DNA of 47,738 bases from assembly GCA_964422845.1 (NCBI GenBank), contig CAYRCT010000001.1, forward strand, positions 1-47,738, read 5' to 3'. Position numbers and translations under genes: made by a program. Shown piece after piece: positions 22,482 to 23,223 of the stretch (position 1 is the first letter of the stretch; each line of letters starts with the position of its first letter). The notes beneath the pieces are model-generated. The model was not told the DNA's origin, did no database searches, and worked only from the letters and a program-made list of their open reading frames with translations. This stretch comes from an uncultured Candidatus Saccharibacteria bacterium (lineage in GTDB: Bacteria > Patescibacteriota > Minisyncoccia > Minisyncoccales > PEYH01).

Positions 22482-22558
22482 TGGCGGGGACGACCGGATT
22501 TGAACCGGCAACCTTCACTGTGACAGAGTGATGATCTAACCAATTGATCTACGTCCCC
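22482..22558 (-). tRNA. tRNA-Asp (GUC) with encoded CCA
   Basis: Hand-folded cloverleaf: GGGGACG/TA/GATC-AATTGGTTA-GATC/A/TCACT-CTGTCAC-AGTGA/AGGTT/GCCGG-TTCAAAT-CCGGT/CGTCCCC/G/CCA. Confidence 0.9.
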
Positions 22559-22574
22559 AAATCTTCAAAGCTTG

Positions 22575-22645
22575 TACCGGGGTTGGGAATTGAACCCACT
22601 TTGACCGCTTATGAGACGGCCTTAGAAGCCATTCTACTCCCCGGC
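22575..22645 (-). tRNA. tRNA(CAU), either Met elongator or Ile2, with atypical geometry
   Basis: Hand fold: GCCGGGG/AG/TAGA-ATGGCT-TCTA/A(G)/GCCGT-CTCATAA-GCGGT/CAAA/GTGGG-TTCAATT-CCCAA/CCCCGGT/A. It is 71 nt with a short D loop. It has either an extra nucleotide at position 26 or a 6-bp anticodon stem. CCA is not encoded. Confidence 0.6.
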
Positions 22646-22843
22646 TTGAGACAAGGCATCTATTAGTCCCATAATTTTATAATATATCTCTGCCGGTCTT
22701 CTAATTCCAAGCATAGCGGTTCCGTAATGGATATTAAAATTCTTATAAATCTTCTTATTTTTCGCTTTAATTAATATCGTTTTATAGAATTGTTTTCGCG
22801 GAATACCGTGGGTTCGAAAATATATCAATGTGCATAACTTTTG

Positions 22844-23161
22844 TTGCGGGGCCTGGAATTGCACCAGGGCCTGGGGCTTCTTTGACACTTTTTGTTTCCA
22901 AAAAGAATGGACTATACCATATGCCTAAACTAGGCATTTCCCATTATAGTCTCTGAACCTTCCCAATAAATATTAGGCTTGGCTGCTGATTACCAAATCT
23001 TCTCTTTTTTTGAACAATCGCGCTTATCCTTTTGGATTACGCTGTTGTAAGAAAAGCTCTAACGGCTTTCCAGCAATTTAGAGAATTTTTCCACAAGACA
23101 TTACTGTCTTGGGTCACGCTTCGAACATGAGACCCCCGAGATACTACTTCTCTACCCCGCT
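22844..23161 (-). tRNA. tRNA(CAU), probably the initiator, interrupted by a group I intron
   Basis: The 5' exon (23161-23127) reads AGCGGGG/TA/GAGA-AGTAGTA-TCTC/G/GGGGT/CTCAT. The 3' exon (22879-22844) reads AA/GCCCC/AGGC/CCTGG-TGCAATT-CCAGG/CCCCGCA/A. It has a 1:72 A-A mismatch and an A11:U24 pair. Confidence 0.8.
22880..23126 (-). ncRNA. Group I intron (247 nt, no ORF) in the anticodon loop of tRNA(CAU)
   Basis: It follows an exon U and ends in G. Core motifs present are AAATTGCTGGAAAG, CAGCAGCCAAGCCTAA and GTTCAGAGACTATAATGGG...GGTATAGTCC. GNRA-capped hairpins are CAAGACA-GTAA-TGTCTTG and CTTTTTG-GAAA-CAAAAAG. A candidate P8 hairpin is ATGCCTA-GTT-TAGGCAT. Confidence 0.85.
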
Positions 23162-23166
23162 ATACT

Positions 23167-23189
23167 AAAAAACGCTTCTTTATAGAAGC
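23167..23189 (-). terminator. Rho-independent terminator after the gatCA operon
   Basis: The minus strand reads GCTTC-TATAAA-GAAGC followed by GTTTTTT, immediately before tRNA position 1. Confidence 0.55.
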
Positions 23190-23223
23190 ATATTACCTTA
23201 AATAAAGTAAAAAATCAAATTAA

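Follow-up and report, generated by a model that had tools for sequence, protein, structure and literature searches.

A group I intron interrupts the initiator tRNA gene of an uncultured candidate-phyla bacterium

The locus and its conservation in related genomes

The locus described here lies on the minus strand of a 47,738-nucleotide stretch of DNA, the whole of which was analysed and is referred to below as the window. A tRNA-fMet gene, split into two exons by a 247-nt intron, is followed by two further tRNA genes. One is a second tRNA(CAU) in the elongator-type position (22574..22645, minus strand), called by ARAGORN; the other is tRNA-Asp(GUC) (22482..22558, minus strand), the third gene of a conserved cluster, identified by ARAGORN, Rfam and synteny. 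The second tRNA(CAU) is structurally aberrant in the window, where it scores 29.8 bits against the Rfam tRNA model (gathering score 29), while its orthologues reach 60-69 bits. A sigma-70 scan returned no convincing promoter directly upstream of the split tRNA.

Judging from sequence, the window belongs to a Patescibacteria (Parcubacteria-like) chromosome from an uncultured CPR bacterium; its GatA is 81% identical to that of a Patescibacteria metagenome-assembled genome (MAG). The gene order gatA / tRNA-fMet / tRNA(CAU) / tRNA-Asp is conserved among loci both with and without the intron. Because orthologous tRNA genes lack the intron in many sister genomes, its distribution is sporadic. Seven independent metagenome contigs show 100% identity to the intron over whatever part of it each covers, and for five of these the identity extends over all 831 bases of the tRNA region. 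Three differences within the intron distinguish an eighth contig.

Gene structure and splice boundaries

Exon 1 (23127..23161, minus strand) comprises nucleotides 1-36, that is, the acceptor 5' strand, the D arm, the 5' strand of the anticodon stem and C32 U33 C34 A35 U36. Exon 2 (22844..22879, minus strand) extends from A37 to the discriminator A73, and CCA is not encoded. Both exons are delimited by ARAGORN in intron mode, by near-identity to an intronless orthologue in a related genome (L013:8052-8123) and by cloverleaf covariation. The intron between them (22880..23126, minus strand) is supported by Rfam RF00028, by covariation in 34 homologues and by a family HMM. It begins after exon U36 (23127), ends with the omega-G at 22880, and is thus inserted between U36 and A37, directly after the CAU anticodon. 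With introns allowed, ARAGORN reports tRNA-Met(cat) at c[22843,23161] i(36,247); given the spliced 71-nt sequence, it again returns tRNA-Met(cat), in a cloverleaf fold. Across the junction CTCAT|AAGCCCC, the intronless orthologue is near-identical to the joined exons. These results reproduce to the base the exon and intron coordinates proposed in the initial annotation, together with the insertion after nucleotide 36, a start after an exon U and an end in G, and two exon halves able to fold as a tRNA.

Two scans that the initial annotation had put forward as checks were run, and both agreed with it: intron-tolerant ARAGORN found the split tRNA-Met(cat) with its 247-nt intron, and Rfam Intron_gpI (RF00028) matched 23139..22888 (minus strand) over the full model (positions 1-253) with 78.3 bits and an E-value of 2.6e-18, well above the gathering score of 50. 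Combined with family-wide covariation, this bears out the assignment to group I. The family HMM scores the window intron at 219.6 bits, a value that is not independent, since the 34 rows of that profile include the window. As had been claimed, the intron is ORF-less: no reading frame lying wholly within it exceeds 32 aa. Two ORFs, of 51 aa (22782..22937) and 84 aa (22634..22888), start in the intron and continue past it through exon 2; the 84-aa ORF has no NCBIfam family match. The split initiator tRNA gene with a group I intron is thus confirmed as real.

Secondary structure of the intron

All elements below are on the minus strand. The P1 hairpin (23114..23130) is formed by exon UCAU (23130-23127) and intron GU (23126-23125), which pair with the internal guide GCGUGA (23119-23114). 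Its register is conserved in 34 sequences and is recovered by the MFE fold. The 5' splice-site wobble is U23127·G23117, and U·G occurs at this position in 34/34 family members, in line with the earlier proposal of an exon-UCAU/intron-GUGA pairing with a U·G wobble. The exon C-G and A-U pairs are likewise present in 34/34 sequences each, while two intron-internal pairs covary (AU/GC/GU and GC/AU/UA/CG). The Rfam alignment places P1 in another register, GGGUCUCAU paired with GCGUGACCC; we rejected it as shifted and containing two mismatches, the UCAU|GU pairing with GCGUGA being conserved and covarying instead.

P2 (23091..23113) is a CAAGACA/UGUCUUG hairpin flanked by CC/GG, with compensatory changes in 7/9 pairs and a GUAA tetraloop cap (23104-23101). 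The P3 5' strand UUCUC (23081..23085) pairs with GGGAA (22938..22942), a strand that forms a pseudoknot with P7; this helix (helix 3 of the covariation analysis) shows compensatory changes in 4/5 pairs and 100% of cells paired. After J3/4 AAA comes the P4 5' strand UUGCUGG (23070..23076), whose partner is UCAGCAG (22983..22989; covariation analysis helix 4). P4 appears in the Rfam alignment and is mostly invariant, with 95.7% of cells paired. P6/P6a (22958..22982), a CC...GG helix enclosing CCUAAU/AUUGGG, is recovered by the MFE fold and has compensatory changes in 4/5 counted pairs.

The P7 5' strand G(A)GACUA (22947..22953), with its bulged A, is followed by J7/3 UAAU and pairs with UAGUCC (22909..22914; covariation analysis helix 11). 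Present in the Rfam alignment and invariant at 6/6 pairs in 34 sequences, P7 is the predicted guanosine-binding helix. The P8 hairpin AUGCCUA-GUU-UAGGCAU (22921..22937) and the GNRA-capped P9 hairpin CUUUUUG-GAAA-CAAAAAG (22888..22905) each display compensatory changes in 6/7 pairs. Downstream of P9, the sequence UGUCAAAG ends in the omega-G. The GUAA and GAAA loops of P2 and P9 and the P8 hairpin are therefore all present as first described. The MFE fold (z = -4.27) recovers P1, P2, P5a-c, P6a, P8 and P9. On inspection, no pairing with the 3' exon was convincing as a P10.

The intron has no room for P7.1/7.2 or P2.1; its peripheral structure includes a covariation-supported P5a-c extension. 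P5 (GCCG/UGGU) and this extension occupy 22992..23066, are supported by covariation, and appear as a 70-nt insertion in the Rfam alignment. P5a (23056-23049/23006-22999) has compensatory changes in 8/8 pairs, P5b contains a conserved internal loop, and the P5c hairpin has compensatory changes in 4/4 pairs; an A-rich strand lies at 23013-23007. The L5c loop (23033-23030) is AAAA in the window allele, in contrast to the GNRA loop of nearly all relatives, and this may weaken a peripheral contact. In one variant (L005), three differences are all fold-compatible: among them, 22995 T->C replaces a G·U by a G-C pair in P5, and 23033 A->G makes the L5c loop GAAA, restoring the GNRA motif. The extension is missing from the shortest family members (about 6/34, 196-231 nt).

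A family of introns at the same site

At least 36 distinct tRNA-fMet genes from metagenomes carry an intron of this family at the identical position, and U-1 and omega-G are found in 36/36 distinct family introns. Homologous introns at this site in L011 and L024 score 92.3 and 82.3 bits. The family was delimited by full-length HMM score, with members at 105 bits or more and other sequences at 85 bits or less. This delimitation came after a metagenome search with a P7/P3'/P8/P7' pattern, which is not specific to the family: it also matches SSU rRNA introns of eukaryotes and further group I introns.

In the alignment of 34 sequences, compensatory changes are observed in 49/77 proposed pairs, and 90.9% of cells are paired versus 35-43% when partners are slid; 0/500 shuffles reached the observed covariation score. 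Covariation is seen in P3, P5, P6 and P8, with P4 and P7 conserved; P7, J8/7 and the U·G positions are invariant across the aligned family. A search for a homing endonuclease ORF in the longest members (L100, 444 nt, and L166, 308 nt) yielded short open frames only. BLAST against phages gave core-level matches only (identity about 71-76%, query coverage 36-51%), which is uninformative on origin.

Initiator identity of the split tRNA

The exons had been described as initiator-like, and the family agrees: the A1:A72 mismatch of the window corresponds to an unpaired 1:72 in 23/26 members, and A11:U24 is found in the window and in 24/26 members. The acceptor stem GCGGGG/CCCCGC with A73 resembles that of E. 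coli tRNA-fMet. In the anticodon stem, G29-C41 and G30-C40 are present but 31:39 is U·G, so that the three G-C pairs of initiators are incomplete; most relatives have A29-U41. In these CPR initiators, the departure from the G-C triplet appears to be a lineage trait rather than a mark of another isotype. The exons of intron-bearing genes have 95.6% of cells paired and compensatory changes in 14/20 pairs, which argues that these tRNAs are still under selection and hence that removal of the intron is required. A homologous seed was labelled fMet by the pipeline of Williams 2020 (10.1101/2020.01.27.920355), which types the isotype with tRNAscan-SE.

Comparison with known introns

By sequence comparison, the intron is a member of the fMet.5Ug type already catalogued by Williams 2020 (bioRxiv 10.1101/2020.01.27.920355). 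Against the family HMM, the seed Yba21.fMet.5Ug aligns from end to end (positions 5-258 of the HMM) with 133.5 bits and E 4.6e-42, and the second-ranked seed reaches 29 bits. Yba21.fMet.5Ug agrees with the window in host tRNA, in insertion after the third base of the anticodon and in U-1/omega-G; it shares the core strings AAAUUGCYGGAAA, AAUCAGCAGC, GUUCAGAGACUAUAAUGG and AUAGUCC, and has GNRA-capped P2 and P9. The seed has a short P5 hairpin, however, whereas the window and about 28/34 relatives have a P5a-c extension of about 58 nt, whose features across relatives are a GNRA loop and an A-rich strand. The fMet.5Ug type is known from this bioinformatic catalogue only, and the literature searched contains no splicing test of any member. 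The type and its presence in candidate-phyla genomes having been catalogued in 2020, the window intron is a further member and current understanding is unchanged.

The initial annotation had likened the insertion site to those of classic bacterial tRNA introns. This holds for the Azoarcus sp. tRNA-Ile(CAU) intron (Ile2.5Ug, IC3), inserted at the same site after CAU, and fails for the cyanobacterial tRNA-fMet intron (fMet.2Ug, IC3; Synechocystis PCC 6803, Gloeobacter), which lies after U33. The Azoarcus intron shares its P1 logic with the window (exon CAU with guide GUG, U·G wobble) and is similarly compact and free of ORFs, with GNRA loops on P2 and P9. Its host is Ile2 rather than the initiator; its core strings are UUCGGCG/GCCGAG and GUAGAGACUAGAC, as opposed to UUGCUGG/UCAGCAG and UCAGAGACUAUAAU in the window; it has no P5 extension, and it scores only 8.1 bits with the family HMM. 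The cyanobacterial intron resides in the same class of host gene, an initiator tRNA, but between U33 and C34 (a position taken from Williams 2020 and the seed Tpc1.fMet.2Ug), three nucleotides upstream of the window site at U36/A37. Its partial HMM match of 7.8 bits indicates no close IC3-core relationship, and in Synechocystis the intron contains the gene for the homing endonuclease I-Ssp6803I, whereas the window intron lacks an ORF. At about 8 bits each, both classical introns are far in sequence from the window intron.

Core strings reminiscent of the Tetrahymena intron had also been pointed out. They are indeed shared at P3/P4, P4'/P6, P7 and P7', as generic group I strings. In outline, the P5 extension, with its GNRA-capped arm and A-rich strand, presumably resembles P5abc of the Tetrahymena LSU rRNA intron (IC1). 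That intron differs in host gene, in length (about 414 nt versus 247 nt) and in its P2.1/P9.1-9.2 elements, and the sequence used for it gave no family HMM match at E<10. The literature searched assigns all four classical bacterial tRNA introns to IC3, a subgroup without a P5abc-like domain.

Proposed splicing and alternative explanations

We consider it very probable that the element is a true group I intron, most likely active in self-splicing, and that it separates U36 from A37 in the initiator tRNA gene of an uncultured Patescibacteria/CPR organism. Catalysis, splicing in vivo and a dependence of initiation on splicing we only infer. The proposed steps are those established for group I introns. 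Before splicing, exon 1 would pair through its terminal UCAU (U33 and the anticodon CAU) with the internal guide GUGA, intron positions +1 and +2 would extend P1, and the U·G wobble would be presented at the 5' splice site. The P3-P9 core would fold with a P4-P6 stack bearing the peripheral P5a-c extension, with tertiary contacts expected from the GNRA loops of P2 and P9. P7 would bind an external guanosine, which would attack the 5' splice site, after which the terminal intron G (22880) would occupy the same P7 pocket and the freed exon 3'-OH would attack the 3' splice site, joining ...CUCAU to AAGCCCC.... The product would be a 71-nt tRNA to which CCA is added after transcription.

An active intron has to be weighed against a dead relic in a tRNA pseudogene, an uninterrupted initiator tRNA elsewhere doing the work. 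The window covers only 47.7 kb of genome, L5c has AAAA in place of a GNRA loop, and the degraded neighbouring tRNA(CAU) means that tRNA decay does occur at this locus. Yet all core elements are intact, with P7, J8/7 and the U·G invariant; the cloverleaf is kept by compensatory changes in the exons of intron-bearing genes, and separate metagenome samples yielded seven contigs with the identical sequence. CPR bacteria have small genomes, usually with a single copy of each tRNA, and in the 22 related loci showing an initiator-type tRNA(CAU) no more than one such gene was seen per stretch of about 13 kb. A relic is, on this evidence, unlikely. An elongator tRNA-Met, or a tRNA-Ile2 with its CAU modified to lysidine, might instead be the split gene, as the insertion site is that of Ile2.5Ug in Azoarcus and the full G29-C41/G30-C40/G31-C39 triplet is missing. 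The unpaired 1:72 and the A11:U24 pair, the likeness of the acceptor end to E. coli tRNA-fMet, the fMet label of the homologous seed and the separate elongator-type tRNA(CAU) immediately downstream in nearly all syntenic loci make another isotype very improbable. As for an assembly artefact, or a group I-like fragment lying by chance between unrelated tRNA halves, the source is a metagenome assembly and default ARAGORN does not call the gene. Such an arrangement is nevertheless scarcely credible given the identical region in contigs of separate JGI, ENA and Logan assemblies, the homologous split genes in GenBank MAGs and the E-value of the covariance model match.

If an active intron in the initiator gene is accepted, we may speculate further, with considerable doubt, that the split gene is the sole source of initiator tRNA, a guanosine-dependent ribozyme gating all initiation, and, separately, that P5a-c acts as a P5abc-like stabilising domain. 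With a sole source, a coupling between initiation and the pool of guanosine nucleotides could follow, in a cell that probably obtains its nucleotides by scavenging. Should the genome contain another, uninterrupted initiator gene, selection on splicing would be relaxed. Orthologous loci with and without the intron offer a clean natural comparison for intron gain and loss in reduced genomes, and the alignment of at least 36 distinct members, with very rich covariation and an optional P5 extension, is good material for ribozyme structure.

Detection of the split gene by tRNA finders

Run on the whole window, ARAGORN misses the split gene by default and also with -i or -i0,1500, while -i50,700 produced a false tRNA-Ser call; among the settings tried, only -i0,400 recovered it. 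Nine "tRNA-Leu(cag) i(34)" calls by ARAGORN among the metagenome matches proved to be 2-nt mis-splits of the same fMet site and were re-split to U-1/omega-G. The split gene thus escapes default tRNA finders, and genomes of this lineage would be reported without an initiator tRNA as a result. A cyanobacterial-type fMet intron can likewise explain an undetected fMet tRNA gene in a genome. The same problem of missed tRNAs was noted earlier for CPR genomes and for tRNAscan-SE, and the tRNAscan-SE 2.0 paper describes genomes in which an fMet or Ile2 tRNA gene goes undetected where a group I intron splits it. With those genomes in mind, a dependence of initiation on splicing would not be unprecedented.

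An intron-bearing initiator tRNA gene in a Patescibacteria chromosome

The tRNA(CAU) gene at 22844-23161 (minus strand) consists of exon 1 at 23161-23127 (AGCGGGGUAGAGAAGUAGUAUCUCGGGGGUCUCAU) and exon 2 at 22879-22844 (AAGCCCCAGGCCCUGGUGCAAUUCCAGGCCCCGCAA), separated by 247 nt (23126-22880) that both begin and end with G. The Rfam Intron_gpI model aligns over its full length to 23139..22888 with 78.3 bits (E 2.6e-18; gathering score 50). By default, ARAGORN misses the split gene and calls just two downstream tRNAs; with introns allowed, it returns tRNA-Met(cat) c[22843,23161] i(36,247), and the spliced 71-mer is recognized as a tRNA-Met with a normal cloverleaf. The gene and intron proposed in the initial annotation are confirmed to the base. 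The description of the intron as ORF-less also holds, no reading frame wholly within it exceeding 32 aa. An 84-aa ORF that begins in its last bases continues across exon 2 and reaches the next tRNA; no match to it was found in NCBIfam.

The window's intron sequence recurs unchanged in seven metagenome contigs of separate JGI, ENA and Logan origin (100% identity over the part that each covers). In five of them the identity spans the entire 831-base tRNA region, and an eighth contig has three differences within the intron. The split tRNA is therefore not an assembly artefact. The intronless orthologue in L013, a stretch from a related genome (AGCGGGGTAGAGAAGAAGTATCTCGGGGGTCTCATAAGCCCCAGACCCCGGTGCAATTCCGGGCCCCGCAAC), is near-identical to the window's spliced exons, which fixes the junction CTCAT|AAGCCCC without any intron model.

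The window is bacterial chromosome (G+C 33-37%), in which the split tRNA is flanked by gatC, gatA, mreB, a class II aminoacyl-tRNA synthetase gene, tmk, pheS, pheT and gyrB. GatA is 81% identical to that of a "Patescibacteria group bacterium" MAG (JAYENY010000009) and 50-59% identical to those of Nealsonbacteria, Paceibacterota, Giovannonibacteria and other Parcubacteria, which places the host among the CPR/Patescibacteria. That the initiator tRNA gene of this CPR bacterium contains a real group I intron is well supported, and the initial annotation was correct in reading it from the raw sequence.

The order gatA, small ORF, tRNA(CAU) #1, tRNA(CAU) #2, tRNA-Asp is kept in many related genomes, with sporadic presence of the intron among orthologous loci. 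The first tRNA is interrupted at this same site in L011 (intron of 261 nt, Rfam 92.3 bits) and the Giovannonibacteria locus L024 (244 nt, 82.3 bits); it is intronless in L013, L022, L026, L033, L037, L056, L061 and others. Upstream of the tRNA gene, a terminator-like hairpin at 23172-23191 (minus strand; ATGCTTCT-ATAA-AGAAGCGT, then TTTTT) stops 10 nt short of the gene's 5' end. A promoter scan detected no strong sigma-70-like promoter between this hairpin and the tRNA gene; a weak TTGATT-17-TAATAT directly upstream of the hairpin was seen by eye and lies under the scan threshold.

Identity and use of the tRNA

We counted cloverleaf pairs on the aligned spliced exons of 26 intron-bearing genes. 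Paired cells amount to 95.6%, and 14 of the 20 pairs show compensatory changes. The initiator-like features noted initially are shared by most of these genes: positions 1:72 are unpaired in 23 of the 26 (A·A in the window) and 24 have A11:U24. The anticodon loop reads CUCAUAA in all of them. In the window, the anticodon stem has G29-C41 and G30-C40, then U31·G39 instead of the third canonical G-C; across the intron-bearing genes, 17 have G-C at 31:39 and 9 have U·G. An elongator-type tRNA(CAU) adjoins the split gene in almost all syntenic loci which, taken together with the exon features, identifies the split gene as the initiator. It is the only initiator-type tRNA within the window. As judged from sequence, the compensatory exon changes in intron-bearing lineages imply that these lineages make use of the tRNA and hence remove the intron from it.

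Many Parcubacteria-like initiator tRNAs have G for U at T-loop position 55. Besides the window (T loop UGCAAUU, 22856-22862; D loop AGUAGUA, 23142-23148), these include L013, L018, L023, L025, L028, L034, L037, L056, L061 and many metagenome loci. In raw counts that ignore kinship, G55 occurs without the D-loop GG (AG instead) in 24 genes and U55 with GG in 22, with no mixed case. From base identities, it looks as if the G18·Psi55 elbow contact has been swapped for A18·G55.

The second tRNA(CAU) of the window (22574-22645, minus strand) is aberrant, with no U8, a poorly paired 3-pair D stem, a 4-bp T stem and G1·U72. It scores 29.8 bits on the Rfam tRNA model (gathering score 29), against 60-69 for the canonical-looking orthologues of related genomes. 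Possibly it is an elongator tRNA-Met or a tRNA-Ile2 that is decaying or of non-canonical form.

Intron fold and proposed splicing pathway

A secondary structure was drawn from the window sequence and counted on a MAFFT alignment of the 34 family sequences that also underlie the profile HMM described below. Standard pairs fill 90.9% of cells, compared to 35-43% when 3' partners are slid by 1-3 columns. Changes on both sides affect 49 of 77 pairs and 461 cells, versus 139 ± 11 cells after shuffling, and none of 500 shuffles reached the observed covariation score. Compensatory changes occur in P2, P3, P5, P5a, P5c, P6, P8 and P9; P4 is mostly conserved and P7, G(A)GACUA/UAGUCC, shows no variation. 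An unconstrained minimum free energy fold of the window precursor (z = -4.27) independently recovers P1, P2, P5a-c, P6a, P8 and P9.

In P1, exon U-4, C-3, A-2 and U-1 (the last exon base) pair with A, G, U and G of the guide. All 34 sequences have the U·G wobble, and the UCAU/GUGA register suggested initially is the conserved one. The two intron-internal pairs next to the exon pairs covary freely (AU/GC/GU and GC/AU/UA/CG/UG). Rfam's P1 alignment is shifted relative to this register. We found no convincing P10 pairing in the window's intron.

Only the structural elements of the following pathway come from our analysis, the reaction steps being those established for group I introns. P1 would present U23127·G23117 at the 5' splice site, which an external guanosine held in P7 would attack. 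The terminal intron G (omega-G, 22880) would then take the place of this guanosine, and the exon 3'-OH would attack the 3' splice site, joining U36 to A37. A73 is followed by CAA; since the gene encodes no CCA, this end would be added post-transcriptionally.

The P5 extension

In the Rfam alignment, the roughly 70 nt that follow P5 are treated as inserted sequence. In the family alignment, this region comprises an 8-bp P5a in which every pair covaries, a P5b whose ends are rich in G-C and enclose a conserved internal loop (consensus UACA / GAAY), a covarying 4-bp P5c with a GNRA cap in nearly all members, and an A-rich single strand leading back to P5a. We presume that it resembles the P5abc arm of IC1/IC2 introns. 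The shortest members (about 6/34; 196-231 nt) lack the entire P5 arm, which is thus peripheral. The window's own P5c cap is AAAA. In a variant population (L005:3603-3855, JGI 3300025736), the three intron differences correspond to window positions 23033, 23012 and 22995: A->G at 23033 turns the P5c tetraloop into GAAA, T->C at 22995 replaces a G·U pair of P5 by G-C, and C->T at 23012 falls within the single-stranded A-rich segment.

The intron family and its relation to known introns

Scanning metagenome contigs with the P7/P3'/P8/P7' string yielded at least 120 stretches. In at least 36 distinct cases, ARAGORN finds a tRNA(CAU) gene interrupted at the same site as in the window; nine of these were initially split 2 nt off and labelled "Leu-cag". 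Among the matches listed, the intron follows exon U-1 and ends in G in 36/36 distinct cases. When 34 of the cases are made into a profile HMM, at least about 53 loci score 105 bits or more, full-length and including exon flanks; at 85 bits or less, matches are partial core matches to other group I introns, such as those of eukaryotic SSU rRNA genes.

Williams 2020 (bioRxiv 10.1101/2020.01.27.920355) added 17 new types to the four classical tRNA intron types (Leu.3Ug, Arg.5Ug, fMet.2Ug and Ile2.5Ug, all given as IC3), and reported tRNA introns to be highly frequent in metagenome assemblies from unnamed phyla. The seed alignment of that study includes Yba21.fMet.5Ug, an fMet tRNA intron located after the third anticodon base. 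Its site and core strings are the same as those of the window's intron, and it matches the family HMM end to end with 133.5 bits (E 4.6e-42). The window's intron is therefore a further case of the catalogued fMet.5Ug type. All other seed matches are partial: Mga42.Leu.1Ug (29 bits), Aol6.Ile2.5Ug from Azoarcus (8.1 bits) and the cyanobacterial Tpc1.fMet.2Ug (7.8 bits). The initial annotation had equated the insertion site with that of classical bacterial tRNA introns; the seed comparison bears this out for Azoarcus tRNA-Ile2 but not for cyanobacterial tRNA-fMet, whose intron is inserted elsewhere, and neither intron is closely related to ours. Compact like IC3 introns yet carrying a P5 extension, the window's intron may fall within or outside that subgroup.

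Lui et al. 2021 (PMC8172020) described group I introns in some tRNAs of circularised CPR genomes, where they hinder detection. In view of earlier literature including that study, an initiator tRNA gene left undetected through a group I intron is not new. The value of our case is modest, residing chiefly in annotation, plus material for structure and evolution work.

The 16-nt P7/J7-3 string GTTCAGAGACTATAAT is also present in group I introns of eukaryotic SSU rRNA genes in metagenomes (L085, L110, L143), so this core string is found far outside bacterial tRNA introns. Three family members (L115:1759-2041, L175:1801-2089 and L100:1797-2256) carry in the P1 loop an insert of ~22 nt that repeats sequence of the same gene's exon 2, namely the T arm and the first part of the 3' acceptor strand (for L115, intron GCCCCGTGCAATTTGGGGTGG vs exon GCCCCCGTGCAATTCGGGGTGG); it may represent a duplication scar or else mimic a tRNA arm. 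Further tRNAs of related CPR genomes are split as well. A 218-nt insert called by ARAGORN in a tRNA-Asp (L028:9587-9882) is under the Rfam threshold. An ARAGORN tRNA-Ala of odd geometry (L045:1535-1805, anticodon at position 231) overlaps an 82-bit group I match, and another tRNA-Asp (L015:9423-9734) is interrupted by a group I intron of 238 nt that scores 84.4 bits with Rfam.
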